Positions 3,391-56,280 of a DNA stretch of 64,000 nt are shown in pieces. Origin of the DNA: Mobula hypostoma (taxonomy: Eukaryota); assembly GCF_963921235.1 (NCBI RefSeq), contig NC_086097.1, positions 10,602,001 to 10,666,000 of the forward strand. The letters are read 5' to 3'. The notes under the pieces are model-generated. The model worked only from the letters and a program-made list of their open reading frames with translations, did not search any database and was not told the DNA's origin. Position 1 is the stretch's first letter, and the number at the start of each line of letters is the position of its first letter. The translations under genes were made by a program, and so were the position numbers.

Positions 3391-4812
3391 AGAACCATAG
3401 AACCATAGAACACTACGGCACAGAAACAAGCCTTTTGGCCCTTCTTGGCTGTGCCAAACCATTTTTCTGCCTAGTTCCACTGACCTGCACCTGGACCATA
3501 TCCTTCCATACACCTCTCATCCATGTACCTGTCCAAGTTTTTTTTAAATGTTAAAAGTGAGCCCGCATTTACCACTTCATCTGGCAGCTCATTCTACACT
3601 CCCACCACTCTCTGTGTGAAGAAGCCCCCCCCAATGTTCCCTTTAAACTTTTCCCCCCTCACCCTTAACCAATGTCCTCTGGTTTTTTTCTCCCCTTGCC
3701 TCAGTGGAAAAAGCCTACTTGCAATCACTCTATCTAAACCCATCATAATTTTATATACTTCTATCAAATCTCCCCTCATTCTTCTACACTCCTGGGAATA
3801 AAGTCCTAACCTATTCAACCTTCCTCTATAACTCAGTTTCTCAAGTCCTGGCAACATCCTTGTAAACCTTCTCTGCACTCTTTCAACCTTATTAATATCC
3901 TTCCTGTAATTTGGTGACCAAAACTGCAGACAATACTCCAAATTCGGCCTCACCAATGCCTTATACCATAATATTCCAACTCTTATACTCAATACTTTGA
4001 TTTATAAAGGTCAATGTACCGAAAGCTCTCTTTACAACCCTATCTACCTGTGACGCCACTTTTAGGGAATTTTGTATCTGTATTCCCAGATCCCTCTGTT
4101 CTACTGCACTCCTCGGTGCCCTACCATTTACCTTGTATGTTCTACCTTGGTTTGTCCTTCCAAAGTGCAATACCTCACACTTGTCTGTATTAAACTCCAT
4201 CTGCCATTTTTCAGCCCATTTTTCCAGCTGGTCCAAATCCCTCTGCAAGCTTTGAAAACCTTCCTCACTGTCCACTACACCTCCAATCTTTGTATCATCA
4301 GCAAATTTGCTGATCCAACTTACCACATTATCATCCAGATCATTGATATAGGTGACAAATAACAATGAACAGAGCACTGATCTCTGTGGCACACCACCAG
4401 TCACAGGCCTCCACTCAGAGAAGCAATCTTCCACTACCACTCTCTGGCTTCTTCCATTGAGCCAATGTCCAATCCAATTTACTACCTCTCCATGTATACC
4501 TAGCGACTGAATCTTCCTAACTAACCTCCCATGCAGGACCTTGTCGAAGGCCTTACTGAAGTCCATGTAGACAACATCTACTACCTTCCCTTCATCCTCT
4601 TTCCTGGTAACCTCCTCGAAAAACCCTAATAGATTTGTTAAGCATGACCTACCACACGGAAAGCCATGTTAACTCTCCCTAATAAGTCCCTGTCTATCCA
4701 AATACTTGCAGATCCTATCTCTTGGTACTCCTTCCAATAATTTACCTACTACTGACGTCAAATTTACCGGCCTATAATTTCCTGGATTTCTTTTAGAGCC
4801 TTTTTTAAACAA
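3391..4812 (-). mobile_element. 5'-truncated CR1-type LINE (RT fragment, frameshifted)
   Basis: ORFs 3961-4566 (DFSKAFDKV...GVPQ...KFADDTK) and 3594-3992 (LVRPNLEYC.QFWSP); tail (ATAGAACC)n at 3391. Confidence 0.92.
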
Positions 4813-4914
4813 TCTCAATGATTTGCAGCTGGTGGCCAATGAAACAAAGAAAACAACTAAATACTTGGTTAATCACTCTTTTCCTGGCAAACGATCGTCA
4901 AAAACAATAGCACG

Positions 4915-6850
4915 TACATACAAACGTCATTCCTACAGGAGTTATCATTTCTTCAGTATAAGTTCTTAGTTGGATATCTACGGGCTTCAGTTCAGTATCT
5001 TTGAAATGTCACACAAACTCATTTTGTAGAATGACTGAAATAGATGAGCCAGTGTCCAATTCCACATTAAATATTTTGCCGTTTAGACGTGAATGGCAAA
5101 TTGCTTGTCTATTGTTAGCTTTCACATTGTAAGTCTTCAGGCTACCTAGACTGCGTGACTCTCTTCACACATGTGGATTAGTACTCTTTTTGAAACTTGA
5201 ACCTGAATTTGATCTTCCTTTTCTTCCTTGTGCAGCCAATTTATTTTTGTCTGCCCAACGCACTTTTTTATATGTGCTCTACTTTGTTGCCTTTGAATTG
5301 AATTGAACTGAATTGACTTTATTACTTATATCCTTCATATACATAAGGAGTAAAAGTCTTTGTGTTACATCTCCATCTAAATATGCAATGTGGAATTTAT
5401 ATTAATTTATAATAAATGGTATGTACAATGGGATGGTCAATATAACATAGAAATACAGTTGTGTCAGCAGGCTGATGGCCTGGAGGAAGATACTGTCCCA
5501 GAGCCTGTTGGTCCTGGCTTTTATGCTGCGGTACCATTTCCTGGATGGTAGCAGCTGGAACAGTTTGTGGTTGGGGTGACTCGGGTCCCCAATGATCCTT
5601 CAGGACCTTTTCACACACCTGTCTTTGTAAATGTCCTGAATAGTGGGAAGTTCACATCTACAGATTCCCTGGGCTGTCCGCGCCACAGTCTGTAGAGCCC
5701 TACGATTGAGGGAAGTACAGTTCCCATACCAGGCAGTAATGCAGCCAGTCAGGATGCTCTCAATTGTGTCCTTCTAGAAAGTTCTTAGGATTTGGGGGCC
5801 CATACCAAACGTCTTCAACTGTCTGAGGTGAAAGAGGCACTTTGTGCTTTTTTCACCACACAATCAGTATATATCTCGTGAGAACTTTGGTGACGTTTAT
5901 GCCGAGGAATTTAAAACTGTTCACCCCTTCAACCCCCGATCCATTTATGTCATTAGGGGCTAGCCTGTCTTCATTCCTCCTGTAGTCCACAACTAGCTCT
6001 TTTATTTTTGCAAGTTTCCTGCATTGGTCTGGTGTATAAAGGGCCCTGACACAATGGTAACACAATTTGTTTGGCCAGACCAGTTTCTGTATAGACATTG
6101 CAATTTTGTTCATGTTCACCTTCATCCCTGGATGTAACAACAGTTGTGTCTCTCTATTCTGTTTCCATTGATACAGCTACTTCAACTGTTCTTTGATTGT
6201 GAGTTGTACTTTAGTGAGGAGCTTTTTTTGAATGCTTTCTTGGCAGATTCTGCAAATAAAGAATCTCTCATTGCAACATTAAGCCCATCTTTGAACTGAC
6301 AATGCTCAGACAACTTCTTCAATTCACCAATGTATACAGAAATTGACTCCTCTTCCTTTTGATTCCACCTATGAAACCTAATCAGCAATGGTTTTGGTTA
6401 TAGAGATCCTGTATTACTTTCATGACCTCAACAAAGCTCATTTCGGCTGGTTTGGTTGGAGCAGTTAAATTTCTAAGCAAACTATATATCTAGTTCGCTC
6501 AGCAAAACTGGCATTCACTTCTCATTGGCTATTTCATTTACTCCAAAATAGTGCTGAATTAGCTCAGTATACATGAGCCATTTGTCCACTGAGCAATCAA
6601 ATGCATCTATCTTTCTGATGTTGCCAGCAATTTCCACTTAAAAAAAATATGATTATTATCCCCTATTACTTGTTGCTTATGAACCCATGATTTTGTCTGT
6701 TTCCTGCCTTTTGAACTTGACTGGGTCTTCCATTCTGGAGAAGATGTGTTCCAATTTTTTTTTAACTCTAAGGTCTTGACTTCGTATTTTCCTTTTCTTA
6801 CCTGTGCAGTCCATTTGTTTTTGTCTGCCCAACACACTCTTTGTATGTAC
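4915..6850 (-). mobile_element. Degenerate Gypsy (Mag-like) gag-protease remnant, interrupted by Rex1-type insertions
   Basis: Gag: RFHRWNQKEEESISVYIGELKKLSEHCQFKDGLNVAMRD (6182-6388). Protease VELDTGSS near 5045-5065 and ELKPVDIQLRTYT near 4955-4995. Confidence 0.75.
5295..6010 (-). mobile_element. Rex1/Babar-type LINE 3' fragment
   Basis: KELVVDYRR...VNSFKFLGINVT motif; (AATTG)n-type tail near 5295-5315. Confidence 0.8.
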
Positions 6851-47500: not shown

Positions 47501-48344
47501 ACACACATCAAAGTTGCTGGTGAACGCAGCAGGCCAAGCAGCATCTATAGGAAGAGGTGCAGTCGATGTTTCAGGCCAAGACCCTTCGTCAGGACTAACT
47601 GAAGGAAGAGTGAGTAAGGGATTTGAAAGCTGGAGGGGGAGGGGGAGATGCAAAATGATAGGAGAAGACAGGAGGGGGAGGGATAGAGCCGAGAGCTGGA
47701 CAGGTGATAGGCAAAAGGGGATACGAGAGGATCATGGGACAGGAGGTCCGGGAAGAAAGACGGGGGGGGGGTGACCCAGAGGATGGGCAAGAGGTATATT
47801 CAGAGGGACAGAGGGAGAAAAAGGAGAGTGAGAGAAAGAATGTGTGCATAAAAATGAGTAACAGCTGGGGTACGAGGGGGAGGTGGGGCCTAGCGGAAGT
47901 TAGAGAAGTCCGCTAGGCCCCACCTCCCCCGCGTACCCCAGCTGTTACTCATTTTTATGCACACATTCTTTCTCTCACTCTCCTTTTTCTCCCTCTGTCC
48001 CTCTGAATATACCTCTTGCCCATCCTCTGGGTCACCCCCCCCCCCGTCTTTCTTCCCGGACCTCCTGTCCCATGATCCTCTCGTATCCCCTTTTGCCTAT
48101 CACCTGTCCAGCTCTCGGCTCTATCCCTCCCCCTCCTGTCTTCTCCTATCATTTTGCATCTCCCCCTCCCCCTCCAGCTTTCAAATCCCTTACTCACTCT
48201 TCCTTCAGTTAGTCCTGACGAAGGGTCTCGGCCTGAAACGTCGACTGCACCTCTTCCTATAGATGCTGCTTGGCCTGCTGCGTTCACCAGCAACTTTGAT
48301 GTGTGTTGCTTGAATTTCCAGCATCTGCAGAATTCCTGTTGTTT
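47501..48344. mobile_element. Palindromic PLE insertion (arms ~47500-47897 and 47909-48307, 11-nt spacer)
   Basis: Near-perfect inverted repeat; TSD TTCTGTCCTTGGA at 47488-47500 and 48343-48355. Confidence 0.92.
48211..48246 (+). ncRNA. Minimal type-I hammerhead ribozyme in PLE (best copy)
   Basis: Stem I AGTC/GACT, core CTGACGA, stem II AGG/CCT, GAAA, palindromic ACGT stem III, GTC triplet (predicted cleavage after 48242). Confidence 0.8.
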
Positions 48345-49425: not shown

Positions 49426-51886
49426 TTGCATGCATCTTTGGAAACAGCTCTATTTCAATCTTTAATATCTTTATCTTTCCCTTTCATGGTTCTTTTGAAG
49501 ACCCTGACCTGGAATTACACGCAGACTTTGGTTCTTTGCGGGAATAGGACCCGTTCTTGGGGTTTCAGGACCAGCCGTTGTTCAGCACGCCAAGAGATCA
49601 GCCTGAGATGCAGCCTAGTGTTTGGAGGCCTAAGATCTCGGGGCTCTGGAGATAGGCGGATTGAGGGTCGATGTCATGGCAGGAGACTTGTGTGTGGTCA
49701 GGGAGGCCGGAAAATCTTTTGCTGTGGGCCCGAAGACCTGAGATCTTCGCAATCTTTGGGCACAGAGCTCGTAAAAAGCTACAAAATGGACTTTTTAACA
49801 TCATAAACCAGCGGGTTGTTATTTTGTCTCCCACTCGCTGTGAAAATGGGGACACCTCCCTCTCCTTTTTAGGGAGAGAGAGAGAACCTGTAGGTTGCTG
49901 AATGCCAGATGAAATGCGATAGTCTTTGGGGTAACTGCAAGATCTGTGTCTTTGATATTGCTTAGCTCACACTTGTGCTCCGTGGTGGGTGTGCTTTTTT
50001 GGTCAGTGGGGGGAGGGGGTATTGTTGCTCGATGCTGCTTATGCATGGGAGGGGGGAGCCAGGGGAGGGGGAGGGCTTTCGGGTTCTCACGTTTAACTAT
50101 CGTTCATTCTTTGGGGCACTTCTCCATTTTCGTGGATGTTTTGCGAAGAGAAAGCATTTCAGGATGTATATTGTATACATTTCTCTGACATTAAATTGAA
50201 CCTTTGAGTCTGCAGAACACTGAAACACCCAAACAATCACCAAACTGCAAATCACAGTATCCAACAGTTCCAGAATCACATTCAAAATGAAAAACGAACG
50301 TAAAAAGACATAAAAGAAGTGAAATATATGGTTTCATGATCTACCCAGAAGATGTCGACCAAAGGAACATTGTACGAAGTTACCATCTTGACCAGAAAGC
50401 GAAAGACAACACCTATCAGAAACATGCTATCCCTAGACATCTGGAGAGATCTGAGGCCTCTGTTGGTCAGGGTCAACCATGGATATTGCATCCTAACTGT
50501 CTATGTGATACACAAGGCAGGGCAGTATGATATGGAGAGGAAGTCCATGTTGCCTATAATGCAAGCTCCCCCTCTCCAAGCATCTGATAAACCCAAAGGA
50601 ACAGTAGAGACCGATACAGTTTGGCACCCGTAGTGCCGTAGGAGTTGCCAGTCTGCATGAACTCAACATAGGACTGCCTTAGGGATGGACCCCAACTCTG
50701 GATTTTTCCCTTGGGGTTTATTCCCAAAGGCTTTCCGAAAAGGGGGCATAGCTGCAAGGGAGCAGAGGTTTGAGATCAGAGTTTTCTTTCTCCTAGATGA
50801 GCAACCAAACACAGCTGATGAGCCCTATCTGCGTAAAGCAAATAGTTTTAAGGTGCCAGTAACCTGCCTTTGCCCATTCTCTTGTCAATAGAAATGTTTC
50901 CGCTGGGATTAGCAAATAGCCACACTTGAAAGCCAGGTGCTGGACTCGGTTGTCACAGGCTATTTGAGATGCATGCCATTGGGAGTATTCAATAACTAGT
51001 GGAAGCTTATCCCCGTTACCACCCCTTGGCTGTAACAACCTTAAGGAACCATCTAGAGAGATACAGCATGGAAAAAGCAGGACTTTTGGTCCATTGGGTC
51101 CTCACCAAATATTAAATGTCCACTTTCACACCTATCCCACCCTGAGCCATTTTATTCTTCTGCCAAATTCTACCATTCATCTACACACTCTACGATGACC
51201 CTATCAACTGAAATATTTTTAGGAATGGGCGGAATCTCACACAGCCACAAAAAGAATATGAAAACTGTCCACAAGCATTACAAGAGGTCTGCATCTGATT
51301 GTTGGTTGCCATGGTTCTGAGGTAACTTGTCAACTAGCTGCAACATCTCGCCAACCTTAAATCTTCCATCAGCCGTGTTTGTTCCAAAGGCAACAATCCC
51401 AGTCTACCCATTCAAATCTAATTCCACAGTGCTAGCAACAGCCCAAGGAATCTTTTCTGCACCTCTCTCCAATGCGGCCATATTGCTGTGACTGAGTAAT
51501 GTTCAGGATTCAAAAAGAAAAAAATTGCACAAATAGCAAAAGATGAACAAGAAACACAGAATGCAAAAGAGCAAACCACAGAGTCGCTGAATAGTACACA
51601 AATATTCAGTATAGTTCAGTTCAATTTAGCGCTGTGTTGTTTGCTGACGGCAGGCTGCAGCCAGTCCACCCTAGTCAAAATCATACAAAATAGCAATTTT
51701 AAAAAAAAGAGTAATCTGTACTTTCTGAAGGATATCACCTTTGGTTGTGCTGTTCGCTGGTGCTATCTTCTTGAGACTGCATATAACTTTAAACTGGGCC
51801 ATTATCCTCAAGAATCACCCTGAGTGATAATATCTTCTTCACCATTGAGAATGGGGAGAAAGCAGAAGAAATGTGGTTATCATTTC

Positions 51887-52109
51887 TATTGTGTCTGTGG
51901 CCTGGTTACACAACAACGCTGTTAATAAAAACGCTGGAGACGGGAGCTATGTTTCATGGTTCTCTACTGGCAGAAGCCAAACTTGACACACACGTACAGA
52001 TCAAAACATACCTTATAGCACATGCTCAATATGCGCCTAATAGCGCATTCAACGACATGTTACTAAAACATAAAGTAGTCCCTTATTATACTGTAGGCTA
52101 TCCTGTACA
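51887..52109 (-). repeat. 3' LTR (223 bp)
   Basis: Direct repeat of 55877-56093; minus strand starts TGTACA; I count about 25 substitutions and 2 indels between the LTRs. Confidence 0.93.
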
Positions 52110-52130
52110 CTCCTCCCCTTTTATTTTAAT
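52110..52130 (-). other. Polypurine tract
   Basis: Minus strand ATTAAAATAAAAGGGGAGGAG directly before the 3' LTR. Confidence 0.88.
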
Positions 52131-52307
52131 AGTGTATCAACTGTGTTTTTTTACTGGGGCACTATGCTAAACAAAATATGTTTACCCTTAACATACAAAT
52201 GCCTACCATTTGTTTACTTAGTAACTTAATAATATCAAATTATAACAAAGTAACGTAATAATATCAAATTATAAAAAGCTTTTTTTTACTTTTGGTCTAA
52301 GACCCAC

Positions 52308-52375
52308 TTATAACTCAAGTCTCTGGGGGGGGGTGGGGTGGTCTTCTCTACCTCTCCAGGTAACGTCTGTCAATA
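52308..52375 (-). pseudogene. Gypsy pol extreme C-terminus remnant
   Basis: RRYLER*RRPP..QRLEL*, resembling the RRYPxRxRxPPxRLxL end of Mag-like pol. Confidence 0.65.
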
Positions 52376-52476
52376 ATCTTGTTTGTTTTAATACAGATAT
52401 CCATATAAAAGTCATGAAAAGTTGACCTCTGAGCATAGGAGTTAAGAAGATGTGCGCCTCCGACTTGCTAAGAGTT

Positions 52477-52592
52477 CTATGCAGCAGATCGGCTCCACAT
52501 AATGAAGACTCCTCTATGCAGCTGCACTAGATATATACACATCTTTGTGCTGGTGATTCAGCAGGAGTGCTGGGAAGATGCTCAGGAGAAGA
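52477..52592 (-). pseudogene. SUDS3: SUDS3 retrocopy, 3' part (probable 3'UTR continues to ~52390)
   Basis: SSPEHLPSTPAESPAQR then, after a deletion, STKMCIYLVQLHRGVFIMWSRSAA*; human has SSPEHLPATPAESPAQR...[24 protein letters not shown]. Confidence 0.9.
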
Positions 52593-53642
52593 CGAAGAGG
52601 CTGTCACTTTTTGCGGGACACATCATTTTGGGAGTTAAAGAAATACAGGATAAATTGGAGAACAAAGTTGCATCCTATGCTGGTCAACTTGCAAAGAGTT
52701 TGAGCAGTAACTCTGATGTGAGATCCCGCGGGCTCTCTCGGGCTGTGATTCGGGTCTTCAGGGATTGTAAAAATAGTGCAGGATGTCCGTTCTTCGGGTA
52801 GGATCTGAAAGAATGTACAATTTGCTTAGGAGAACTCAACAATCCCATCCTGCTTCCATGTGATCATTTTTACTGTTTAAAATGTATAAAGCGGTGGCTT
52901 GAATCAGGACAGCGGCTCTGCCCACTGTGCCATACTTCTCTAGGTGATGATTATGTACCAGCGGTAACAGAAGAAATAAGTGAAGCTGTAGCAAAATTAG
53001 ACATATTTCACAAAAGGTGTGAAGCATTTTTCATAGCTTCGGTTTCCATGGTCTGCTTCAAAGATGACTTGCCACCAACAAAGAAGTGGTTGGTGATCTG
53101 CTGTTTCTGCTATTTATTCGAAGGGTCTCGGCCCGAAACGTCAACTGTACCTCGTCCTAGAGATGCTGCCTGGCCTGCTGCGTTCACCAGCAACTTTGAT
53201 GTGTGTTGCTTGAATTTCCAGCATCCGCAGAATTCCTGTTGCTTGAGTACTTTACCAGTAATCGTTCACCATTTGATGAAGCGGTTGATTGAAATCCTGT
53301 TGTTCGTCCCATCGTTTTTAAACTGCTGTTAAAGTACAGTTTTGCTGATATTAAGGATCACCTGCAGTGCTATCTGTCTGGCTCAGGAGGGAAAATTCCT
53401 TCAGGTGCACATTCAGCACGTGTGAAAATGCAACAATAGAAACCTTAAAGTTTGTTGCCAGAATTCGCCTCTGTTTGGCTGCTGTTTCCCAACTTCTTTG
53501 TGAAAAAACAAGACACATTGGCTGAGGATTCAAAATATGTACGTGCAAAAGGAACTTTCCTGCAAAGGATTAAGTGTATGATTCTTAACGGAGGAAATGA
53601 TTAGTTTGAGATTTACCTTGTGCGAAAACTGTTCTGATTGAA
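52593..53642 (+). pseudogene. RNF213: RNF213 internal cDNA fragment including the RING finger (52814-52930), antisense to the element
   Basis: LFAGHIILG...NSDVRS...CTICLGELNNPILLPCDHFYCLKCIKRWLESGQRLCPLC...VCFKDDLPP...SPFDEAVD*NPVVR...KLLLKYSF...VARIRLCL...IYLVRKL; contains stops and frameshifts and no visible introns. Confidence 0.88.
53119..53248 (+). mobile_element. Short PLE 3' fragment inserted in the RNF213 segment
   Basis: Matches the PLE terminus (…GAAACGTC…CAGAATTCCTGTTG); hammerhead truncated. Confidence 0.85.
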
Positions 53643-54294
53643 TGGAGACGCTGGTCTTTTCAGAGATTTAAGCTTATTGAGAGTTTGCAGATCTTCCATT
53701 ATCTGTTCATCTGTTAACAAGTAATTTAACTTCACAGGTGCAGGTTTTCTTCTTTTGTCAGTAATTGGAACAGGGTCATTAGGTCTCCTCCTTAGTTTCC
53801 TCGTTGTTATTGACTTTACCTCCATAGAATCTCCTGTGATTTCCATTATTAGCCTCTCATTCTCAATCATCTTTTTCTTTCCTTCTAACTTAATCTTTTT
53901 ATCTTCAAATTCCTTCACTGCTGCTTTCTTCTCTTTAATATAATTCCTTTCCACTTGTTCTGTCTCCAGTTGCAGAAAAAGCTCTGCATTTCGTATTCTT
54001 TCCTTGTATTGTTGATCTAGTTTCTTCATCCCTTTCTGATACTCCTGCAAATACCTTCCTGTAACTGCTGTAGCTTTCTTTTGAGAGATGTCAATTTCTC
54101 CTGGTACATCTGGTCTTTTACTTCCAGGTAGTCTTCATCATCTTGCCTATTGGCAATATCTGTCTCCCTTGCACCTCTGTATCTTCATCCGAGTCTCAGC
54201 CACGGATACTATGTTCATCCTCATCGTCGACGCTGTCTAGCTCCTCCTCGTCATTGTAATAGTCGTCAATGGATGAGAGGAGAGTTGCAGACAT
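53643..54294 (-). pseudogene. SUDS3: SUDS3 retrocopy, 5' part (from ATG at 54294)
   Basis: MSATLLSSIDDYYNDEEELDS...MYQEKL...[51 protein letters not shown]...[13 protein letters not shown]...[11 protein letters not shown]...KRPASP; intronless; TGA at 54196-54198, two 1-nt frameshifts, ~8-codon deletion. Confidence 0.95.
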
Positions 54295-54319
54295 CTTCCA
54301 CACCGAGCTTCCCTCCTTT

Positions 54320-55494
54320 GTTGACACATCTAGTGCCTTGATGGTGTGCCAATCCAACTGGATTTTCCTGAGCCATTCACAATGGTGGTCCTCCATTTTT
54401 CAGGACATAGAGTTTCAGCTGCTGTGTTTTGTCTTTGTAGGTCACTGTCACTTTAATTTTACCTTTGGGATGCACTTTCTGTCCTGTGAAAGTCTTTAGC
54501 CGTAGTTTAGTTCGTTTCAGAGGTATGTGAGAAAACAGTCATTTGTAGTCATGTACAGCTATCACTGTTAAAGCTGAGCCTGTGTCCAACTCCATTTTCA
54601 GTCTCACGCCTGCCACTCGTGGAGTGATCCTTATTACTCTTTGATTATCTGTCTCTTTCATGCTGTGAAGTTGCAGACAAGACAATTCACTTTCATCTCA
54701 GTCATTTTCATCAGAACTGCTTTCTTCCATTTTGTGTGCATTGTTGTATTTTCCTTTCTGGGGTTTCTTGTTTCTCCGTATTTTGTCTGTGCATACTCTG
54801 CCAGTGTGGCCCTGATTGCCGCAATTTCTGCATTCTTTGTCTTTAAACCCACAGTCATCAGGGTCATGTGTTCCCACTATGGTAACATTTCTTTCCTTCA
54901 TTTCTGTTCAGTGACATTTTATTCACAGCATATTCCAGAGATTTTTGTTGTATCTCTGAAGCACCCCGTGCTGCTTTTTCCGTTCATATTGCAATGTTCA
55001 GCGCCTTCGCTAATGTAAGGTCTCTTTCACACACAAGCTTCTTCTGTGTGGTTTCACAGTGCATGCCACACACTAACCTGTCCCTCAATGTGTCCGATAG
55101 ACCAGCTCCAAATTGACAATGTTCTGATCATTTGTGCGATTCAGCACAATATTCAGAAATGCTTTCATTTTTGCTCTGATTCTGTTTGTGAAATTTAAAT
55201 CTTTCAGCAATGACCAGTGGTTTGGGGTTTAAATGCTGTTGGAGAGTGTCTAATATTTGCTTGAACGTTTTGTCAGCTGGCTTTTCAGGGGTTGTTTCTG
55301 TGCAGTAATGTGTTATGGTTCTATGGTTCTGCGTTAACAAGCTCCATAGCAACCCATATGTTTTTGCTCCCGTAATACTGAGTAAGACGCTGGCTTTCTT
55401 TTCATCATTAACACTGTTAGCCTCACAATATAACTCCACTCTCTTAGTCTTCAATGCCACTATCAAATGCTGTAATGATTCTAATCATTGCCAT
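54320..55494 (-). pseudogene. Gypsy gag-protease remnant
   Basis: ATG at 55494; RVELYCEAN...LNPKPLVIAERFKFHK...LRDRLVCG; zinc knuckle CRNCGNQGHTGRVC; protease MELDTGSA near 54575-54595; WLRKIQLDW. A short CR1 tail is inserted near 55294-55333. Confidence 0.9.
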
Positions 55495-55862: not shown

Positions 55863-55873
55863 CCTCGTCGCCA
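55863..55873 (-). other. Primer-binding site complementary to the tRNA-Ser(GCU) 3' end
   Basis: Minus strand TGGCGACGAGG, 3 nt after the 5' LTR; vertebrate tRNA-Ser(GCU) ends ...CCUCGUCG-CCA. Confidence 0.85.
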
Positions 55874-55876
55874 ATT

Positions 55877-56093
55877 TGTTGTGTATGTGGCCTGGTTACA
55901 CAACAATGCTGTTAATAAAAACACTGGAGACGGGAGCTAAGTTTCATGGTTCTTTACTGGCAGAAACCGAATTCGACACACACGTAAGATCAATACGTGG
56001 CTAATAGCGCATGCTCAATATGTGCCTAATAGCGTATTCAACGACGAGTTACTAAAACATAGAATATTATTATACTGTAGGCTGCACTGTACA
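55877..56093 (-). repeat. 5' LTR (217 bp)
   Basis: TG...CA termini; direct repeat of 51887-52109. Confidence 0.93.
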
Positions 56094-56280
56094 ATTTCAA
56101 ATAGTTTAGATTTTTTTTGGTCCAATTAAAAAGTAAGTATAAAACCACACGATCATACAAAAATATGATAGAGAAAACAGCTGTTTTTTGTTTGTTAAAT
56201 TGAGGTGAATTTGAGGTAAATCCAAATGGAATAGAAGAGGGAGGAGGGAAATGGAGGCTGGGCTTTGGACTACAGACAAA

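Follow-up and report, generated by a model that had tools for sequence, protein, structure and literature searches.

Acutely transforming retroviruses carry gag-onc fusions, are helper-dependent, and take up host sequence through non-homologous recombination while reverse transcription is under way. Among gene-transducing long terminal repeat (LTR) retrotransposons, Bs1 of maize and others are reportedly defective yet mobile, and carry pieces of several unlinked cellular genes. For LTR-mediated retroposition, the available part of the study by Tan et al. (2016, Genome Res, PMC5131818) describes template switches guided by microsimilarity, chimeras of several genes and further rounds of retroposition. 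Here we analysed a 64,000-nt stretch of the Mobula hypostoma genome (contig NC_086097.1, positions 10,602,001 to 10,666,000; hereafter the window, whose own numbering is used for plain positions), in which the minus strand from 56093 to 51887 is one copy of a non-autonomous LTR retrotransposon family. In place of reverse transcriptase (RT) and integrase, this element has an intronless SUDS3 cDNA, in sense and in frame, and this cDNA is in turn interrupted by an antisense piece of RNF213. Judged from the copies compared below, the RNF213-in-SUDS3 arrangement is a trait of the family and not a feature of a single locus.

In having its replication genes replaced by spliced host cDNA in frame with gag, the window element resembles the gag-onc retroviruses; it differs from them as an endogenous, germline-amplified element whose RNF213 part is antisense and non-coding, and whose SDS3 fusion is known from sequence alone. 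Bs1 has the same defective state, mobility and multi-gene cargo, a likeness by description only, Bs1 being a plant element and the window element an animal one. An intronless mRNA copy with a short target duplication is also found in a LINE-mediated processed pseudogene; unlike such a pseudogene, the RNF213 piece has no poly(A), is truncated at both ends and moves inside a mobile element. The gene-transducing LTR elements are matched here by LTRs with a target-site duplication (TSD), intronless host sequence, microsimilarity at the RNF213 junctions and repeated retrotransposition. With the products described in the available part of PMC5131818, the family shares intronless partial host mRNAs inside an element that keeps both LTRs, the lack of poly(A), more than one parental gene, a non-autonomous state and renewed retrotransposition, and the microsimilarity at the fusion points, a median of 6 bp there, is 8 and 3 nt at the two RNF213 junctions. 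It departs from those products in that the second passenger is antisense and interrupts the first with a short duplication instead of replacing element sequence, and in copy number, which is at least 330 here as against one to a few there. Our literature search found no publication on a SUDS3- or RNF213-carrying retrotransposon, the SUDS3 literature being judged by title and abstract.

A spliced RNF213 fragment inside SUDS3

On the minus strand, the SUDS3 open reading frame (ORF) breaks after ...KRPASP (P codon at 53643-53645) and restarts with SSPEHLPSTPAESPAQR (SSPEH...) at 52592. Between the two, on the plus strand at 52604-53642, lies an insert with ∼0.92 kb of RNF213 sequence in antisense to the element. 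The ORF at 52802-53329 contains a C3HC4 RING (52814-52930, plus strand; Pfam zf-C3HC4, E 4e-11, with matches to several RING Pfam families), and the RING together with the next 55 residues matches RNF213 structures with E 4e-26 (8s24 residues 4035-4129). In the ORF just upstream, 61 residues give a collinear match to 8s24 residues 3966-4026 (E 1.1e-3; best RNF213 chain 9e-4), and this match begins exactly at the first bases of the insert. The eight RING ligands are all kept, as C5, C8, C20, H22, C25, C28, C40 and C43 of the ORF from 52802. The initial annotation of the window, made from its letters alone, had proposed a SUDS3 frame broken at KRPASP/SSPEH by ∼0.9 kb of RNF213 in the opposite orientation with all eight ligands present, and the structure matches and the eight parent exons described next confirm it on each of these points. 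A search for homologues of the RING ORF among proteins of up to 2,000 residues, a range that excludes RNF213 itself, found none.

The parent gene could be located precisely. A search with the RZ finger matched three places in the assembly and none in the window, and located two RNF213 loci on contig C68. The protein search with the RING ORF gave stop-free, exon-sized matches at C68:48816896-48817099 and 48817816-48817926 with 81% identity; the RING of the other RNF213 locus is 38% identical to that of the insert. That second, distant RNF213-like locus (C68:41273344-41296621) lies 7.5 Mb from the parent gene and has its own RZ-finger match, and the top RZ-finger match of all, at C2:218463656-218463802, is within an 836-aa open frame that possibly belongs to a ZNFX1-like gene.

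Blastn of the insert against 39 kb of the RNF213 gene at C68:48.81-48.83 Mb resolved it into eight collinear blocks, which are eight consecutive exons of one RNF213 gene: a (C68:48810686-48810781), b (C68:48814821-48814929), c (C68:48816889-48817074), d (C68:48817819 to ∼48817993), e (C68:48819749-48819847), f (C68:48828538-48828652), g (C68:48832674-48832872) and h (C68:48833576-48833773). The proximal part of the cDNA, at 52604-53122 on the plus strand, contains exon a from about its 25th base and exons b, c and d, matching C68:48810686-48817963 by blastn with further support from PDB and Pfam; the distal part, at 53246-53642 on the same strand, contains exon e, the first 45 nt of f, the last 145 nt of g and the first 126 nt of h, matching C68:48819754-48833701. 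Each parent block is bordered by AG and GT, and the seven introns between them (∼0.7-8.7 kb) are precisely absent from the insert. Because seven introns have been exactly removed, the RNF213 piece derives from a spliced mRNA, and an unspliced genomic origin is ruled out. An mRNA origin had already been proposed from the lack of introns, with an alignment to the RNF213 paralogs of the species as the check; the exon-exon junctions and breakpoints mapped on the parent gene bear it out.

Identity to the parent gene is 88-96% at the nucleotide level per exon, and 88.5-93.4% overall in 13 of 13 copies. The fragment is internal to the mRNA, starting ∼25 nt into exon a and stopping within or at the end of exon h; it spans approximately residues 3966-4300 of the 5,200-residue protein, ∼11 kb of gene upstream of the RZ-finger exon. 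The 3′ end of the mRNA is not reached, since the fragment stops in exon h or at its border, and no A-run was found at either insert end in any of seven interrupted loci, in agreement with the first reading of the window. A functional RNF213 paralog was considered as an identity for the insert and rejected, since it holds only ∼305 codons in broken frames and the window has no RZ finger.

In all seven distinct interrupted loci the insert is flanked by a duplication of 10-11 nt, CAGCATCTCC(R), which has decayed in the window copy: the left copy of the duplicated SUDS3 target, at 53643-53653 on the minus strand (element sense CAGCGTCTCCA), and the right copy, at 52593-52603 on the same strand (element sense CAGCCTCTTCG), match at 8 of 11 positions. 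This drift explains how the duplication escaped the initial annotation, which saw no clear TSD; one is present after all, and would be the remnant of an original 22 nt. The right junction reads ...AAAAAGTGA|CAGCATCTCCGTCTTC, with CAG common to exon a (parent gene CACTGTCAC). On the left, two forms of junction exist. The short-left form, that of the window, reads ...CATCTCC|ATTCAAAC, and its TGGA (53643-53646) also occurs in the parent gene (...GAATGGAATT). In the long-left form, which marks a second subfamily, SUDS3 runs on to ...GTCTTCTCCTGA and is followed by ACAATTTCC..., the reverse complement of the end of exon h, so that the layout is SUDS3 ...TCTTCTCCTGA|ACAATTTCC and the RNF213 sequence reaches the end of that exon. 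This form was read directly in L027 and L029, by alignment in L030-L032 and from the motif list in L015 and L016; L030-L032 retain the whole of exon h, to 48833773. Since exon i begins with A, the stretch shared at the long-left junction is 8 nt (TCTCCTGA). Under a simple geometric model, the chance expectation is ∼1e-4 for a match of at least 8 nt and ∼0.05 for one of 3 nt.

The short-left form differs from the long-left form by an 80-nt deletion between two TCC triplets, and position 53643 in the window thus appears to be a secondary deletion junction (TCC/TGGA microhomology), the long-left junction being probably the older one. TGGA had been suggested as shared microhomology; it is indeed shared with the parent gene, but it would belong to this deletion and not to the capture. 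Combined, the two forms imply that 22 nt of SUDS3 (CAGCATCTCCGTCTTCTCCTGA) flanked the insert in the ancestor.

Copies of the family and their later changes

We searched the 3.48-Gb assembly for DNA copies of the element, which gave 125 listed matches, the best 40 of 3,080 first-look candidates being scored, and counted the junctions across the genome by motifs with at most three mismatches. Backwards controls gave 0 in each case, and all counts are lower bounds. The uninterrupted SUDS3 junction occurs at least 241 times, the short-left junction at least 36 times, the right junction at least 35 times and the long-left junction at least 56 times, so the check for family copies with an uninterrupted SUDS3, proposed with the first reading, has a clear answer. 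RNF213-bearing forms are a minority, with at least 92 as against at least 241 uninterrupted. Both junctions of the window copy are common to all seven distinct interrupted loci (the window, L003-L006, L017, which is L007, and L018, which is L002); L008 agrees with them in block structure, but has no entry in the junction table since its right anchor was unmatched. The six uninterrupted loci examined (6/6) all read KRPASPSSPEH or a point-mutated variant, L011 with a 2-nt deletion.

Between loci, homology stops at the LTR ends, and the TSDs are locus-specific: GAAAT in the window and ACCAC in L018 are perfect, those of L017 and L012 match at 4 of 5 positions each, and that of L016 is unclear. 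The LTR-bounded homology, the differing TSDs and the shared junctions together indicate that the copies are separate integrations that followed a single capture, and that retrotransposition has carried the chimera of SUDS3 element and RNF213 to at least 92 places. The first reading would have been refuted by a processed pseudogene of the usual kind found here and nowhere else; what we find instead is a fragment with no poly(A) and with both mRNA ends missing, in at least 92 dispersed copies. Contigs from DNA sequencing runs of two organism codes (B: X3, record 16; C: X9, records 24 and 25) span the right junction, extending beyond it by more than 31 nt to either side, so the chimera is not confined to one assembly. 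We also considered an assembly artefact and rejected it, since the same junctions turn up at dozens of loci and again in the contigs of other runs. One locus, L004 (C50:105074417-105078564), has the right junction twice, 2.8 kb apart (C50:105075363 and 105078201), with the RNF213 region partly repeated, which suggests tandem or nested element copies.

The host element of the window copy reads, on the minus strand, gag, protease and in-frame intronless SUDS3 cDNA. The direct repeats at 51889-52077 and 55879-56066 are its LTRs, with TG..CA ends and in direct orientation; they are 85-92% identical, and alignment sets their limits at 55877-56093 for the 5′ LTR (217 nt, TG...CA, where family homology stops in other loci) and 51887-52109 for the 3′ LTR (223 nt), both on the minus strand. 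A perfect 5-bp TSD, GAAAT, stands before the 5′ LTR (56094-56098) and after the 3′ LTR (51882-51886). Abutting the 5′ LTR at 55863-55876 (minus strand) is a TGG-starting stretch that, as read from the sequence, resembles a primer binding site (AAT TGGCGACGAGG), and just before the 3′ LTR, at 52110-52127, is the polypurine tract AAAATAAAAGGGGAGGAG; this tract is part of the 3′ untranslated tail of the element (52110-52332, minus strand), which also contains a C-run at 52316-52332. The gag remnant (54698-55484, minus strand) was found from its ORFs and has a CCHC zinc knuckle (zf-CCHC E 0.004, under the Pfam cut-off). The putative aspartic protease remnant (54295-54697, minus strand; ORFs 54539-54697 and 54196-54399), in the same open frame as SUDS3, gave no Pfam match; we presume a protease from the motifs LDTGSALTVI ... 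DWLRKIQLDW. Searches of ORFs, Pfam and PDB revealed no reverse transcriptase or integrase between the LTRs of the window copy.

SUDS3 occupies the minus strand on both sides of the insert. Its 5′ part, from the ATG at 54294 to ...KRP (53654-54294), matches PDB 4zqa (E 1.3e-28) and 2n2h (E 4.9e-7), and its 3′ part, SSPEH... with the 3′ untranslated region (52333-52592), was delimited from the sequence and by comparison of copies. The SUDS3 ORF of the window itself had no match to Pfam Sds3 at E≤0.1, but a better-preserved sister copy, L013, did (E 1.1e-9), and with the PDB matches the SDS3 identity is firm. Copy L013 is uninterrupted, and its positions 3949-5115 (C1:200868948-200870114) form a single 389-aa ORF that extends from the C-terminus of the protease through nearly all of SDS3, from which it follows that the original element could have encoded a Gag-protease-SDS3 fusion. 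The 219-aa gag ORF of L013 gave Atlas leads to Ty3/gag-like clusters (0.90-0.93); it had no PDB relative at E≤1, and in Pfam only DUF7083, under the cut-off.

According to the available part of a preprint on cartilaginous fishes (bioRxiv 10.64898/2026.06.26.734816), SUDS3 is among the five top retrocopy parents, and retrocopy numbers are tied there to non-LTR elements and selection. Unlike that non-LTR link, as far as the available part sets it out, the SUDS3 copies we describe are passengers of an LTR element. Their number, at least 330, fits the rank of a top parent, and passage in a transposon may explain such counts. The other top parents named in the preprint, MIPOL1, SDF2L1, SLU7 and ZNF276, might also be transposon passengers.

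Many copies have been rearranged since the capture. In the long-left copies sampled, the 5′ part of RNF213 and the 3′ part of SUDS3 are gone, and the sequence rejoins at the C-run (window 52328-52332); the RNF213 breakpoint is in exon c in L027, L029 and L032 (form C) and in exon b in L030 and L031. L028 (form B) has an exon-c/C-run deletion rejoining at 52316, a left deletion of its own and an f/g deletion. The window form lacks ∼124 nt of exons f and g between two CTGG repeats, and a deletion specific to the window copy, bounded by two GCACAAAGAT repeats near 52538-52551, has removed 153 nt from SUDS3. The family is prone to slips: apart from the capture junctions, five rearrangements were counted, and each of the changes given here is at a short repeat. 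In the available part of PMC3187697, retroviral RT template switching is reported to give deletions, deletions with insertions, and duplications, and plus-strand recombination is proposed; rearrangement at short repeats is the pattern reported there. As a separate observation, the C-run at 52316-52332 is where at least three internal deletions of independent origin rejoin (at 52316, 52328 and 52332), and it may be an RT pause site.

A second change confined to the window copy is likewise at a short repeat. At 53123-53245, a 123-nt piece of a very abundant interspersed repeat, with no strand assigned and missing from the other copies, replaces ∼36 nt of RNF213 exons d and e. The initial annotation had noted a later insertion within the RNF213 sequence and called it a Penelope-like element (PLE), which is a putative label; the insertion is specific to this copy, and it proved to be a replacement and not a simple interruption. 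Over the repeat, summed contig depth in four sequencing runs is 10^3-10^4 times that of the flanks; these runs are contigs without strand information and have no bearing on transcription. More copies of the repeat sit in RNF213 introns. In the window, no Rfam family reached its gathering score, and no hammerhead, a motif that a PLE might show, was found at E≤0.1 around two further copies of the repeat; the letters just before the repeat in other copies end ...CCTGA and, taken with CGAAGGG...CCCGAAAC, resemble a hammerhead core. Elsewhere in the window, at 47823-47983, is a near-perfect palindromic hairpin of ∼150 nt, which also occurs at C68:48837426-48837578 (L025 7426-7578) and matches dozens of miRNA models, all under the gathering score. 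The hairpin in the RNF213 intron is flanked by inverted copies of the ∼120-nt repeat inserted at 53123-53245, which suggests that hairpin and repeat are parts of one composite, very abundant repeat.

Routes of capture

SUDS3 was captured first and the RNF213 piece later. For the second capture we favour, as the probable route, a template switch of the RT onto RNF213 mRNA while the element was itself replicating, after which the chimera was amplified. The capture would have occurred inside the particle, during reverse transcription. A growing plus-strand DNA ending ...TCTCCTGA would have annealed by 8 nt to the sense RNF213 mRNA (...TCAGGAGA...) at the exon h/i border and copied the mRNA back toward its 5′ end as far as exon a, gaining a stretch of ∼1.1 kb with RNF213 antisense in the plus strand of the element. 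By the 3-nt CAG match the strand would then have rejoined the minus-strand template 22 nt short of where it had left, and so have duplicated 22 nt of SUDS3. An equivalent variant, in which the minus strand switches onto RNF213 first-strand cDNA, would give the same product, as would another route, a replacement-type capture and then non-homologous recombination with an uninterrupted element packaged alongside. The insert would later have been trimmed by template slips at short repeats, the window form losing 80 nt at the left junction, which left the 10-11-nt duplication, and ∼124 nt in exons f and g. The objection that antisense capture is hard to explain from co-packaged sense mRNA loses its force here, since a plus-strand switch onto sense mRNA would yield an insert in this orientation and a co-packaged sense mRNA would thus suffice.

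The same structure might have arisen on the chromosome, which we think rather unlikely: a staggered break in one master SUDS3 element, which then stayed active and amplified, would have acquired an RNF213 cDNA, either synthesized on the spot by LINE-type target-primed reverse transcription, with the 8-nt match as internal primer, or taken up ready-made by end-joining repair. Such an insertion is free in its orientation, and staggered nicks joined by microhomology classically leave a duplication (10-11 nt now, and 22 nt as we infer it for the ancestor) and microhomology at the two junctions; but the fragment is internal, has no poly(A) and lacks both mRNA ends, and the nick site, ...CCTGA|GCAT, is not of the T/A-rich kind that LINE endonucleases are expected to prefer. 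The copy hit would also have to have been an active one, of which there are few. The family, ∼330 copies of ∼4 kb, makes up ∼0.04% of 3.5 Gb, so that an insertion at a random chromosomal site would seldom strike an active copy; the product of a switch within the particle, by contrast, is integrated as a mobile copy as a matter of course. That the same family shows many other template-slip rearrangements speaks against a chromosomal origin as well. We rank chromosomal insertion lower than the in-particle switch, a weighting that is an argument and not a test.

Several observations weigh against the in-particle switch. The flanking duplication and the junction microhomology are equally expected from target-primed reverse transcription or staggered-break repair, and the sequence by itself cannot separate these. 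The available part of PMC5131818 makes no mention of antisense retrocopies or of orientation. We found no copy that combines the long-left with the right junction: a right-junction match is near none of the 56 long-left loci, and of three candidates L030 and L031 turned out to be a further deleted form and L032 form C, so that both the 22-nt duplication and the order of events are inferred. Form B (L028) mixes features of two forms, which calls for recombination or for deletions that occurred more than once. The tree built from 1 kb beside the insert in 16 copies is a star (median end branch 0.042; 0 of 13 inner branches well supported) that does not split interrupted from uninterrupted forms, and the argument for a single origin is therefore that of the shared junctions. 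Neither an autonomous partner nor the parental SUDS3 gene was found, and the SUDS3 capture junctions were likewise not identified.

Coding state and significance

The RING is intact in 2 of 7 copies, and among 26 near-full RING matches elsewhere 16 have stops and 10 have none, frameshifts not being counted. Since few copies keep an intact RING and most matches carry stops, the eight intact ligands of the window have survived by chance. Between pairs of copies, the insert diverges by 7.2-7.7% and the SUDS3 flanks by 7.8%, and as the insert decays at the rate of its flanks there is no sign of selection; the RNF213 fragment is non-coding cargo that decays neutrally. As a new coding RING gene, the complete RING being expressed from the 176-aa ORF at 52802-53329, the insert earns almost no credence from us: eight kept zinc ligands and 176 open codons in the window copy are what such a gene would have, but the frames upstream and downstream are broken, the ORF enters the unrelated repeat at 53123, the plus strand has no evident start context or promoter, and the sister copies and near-full matches have fared as just described. 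Apart from these, ∼35 stop-free RING matches, with 29-38% identity, are clustered on contigs C12 (∼0.5-13.3 Mb) and C90, and seem to belong to a large tandem family of RING genes, perhaps TRIM-like, with no relation to RNF213.

Element-sense transcripts, which are predicted, would be antisense to RNF213, and this raises the question of a selected function, in which the antisense RNF213 is kept since the element's transcripts give rise to small or antisense RNAs by which RNF213, an E3 ligase of innate immunity, is dampened. The overlap is of a fitting kind, ∼0.9-1.1 kb at ∼91% identity in at least 92 copies, and for a moth the available part of a preprint (10.1101/2022.04.04.486979) reports small RNAs derived from retrocopies that target the parent gene. 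We nevertheless hold this function to be very improbable, because the insert diverges as quickly as its flanks, the RNF213-bearing forms are the minority (at least 92 as against at least 241) and large parts of the insert have been lost repeatedly. Being a matter of function, this reading is compatible with either origin. A broader version makes the element a vehicle of counter-defence, with its ∼90 or more copies feeding small-RNA or double-stranded RNA pathways that lower germline RNF213, a ligase linked to interferon, its in-frame Gag-protease-SDS3 protein interfering with SIN3-HDAC silencing, and both passengers kept for the benefit of the element; we regard it as highly doubtful.

The family offers a well-resolved vertebrate record of nested gene capture by an LTR retrotransposon, in which the parent gene, the splice and capture junctions and the later slips can all be read. 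The usual model, in which co-packaged mRNA is copied during minus-strand synthesis, does not predict an antisense passenger with a duplication; the orientation and the short duplication point to a switch during plus-strand synthesis or to a cDNA template. For annotation, the hundreds of SUDS3 ‘retrocopies’ and the ∼90 ‘RNF213 RING pseudogenes’ are passengers of one transposon family, and are to be taken neither for independent retropositions nor for a sign that retrocopies are under selection. For the biology of such elements, the family is an example, clear though decaying, of a retrotransposon that shuffles fragments of host genes.

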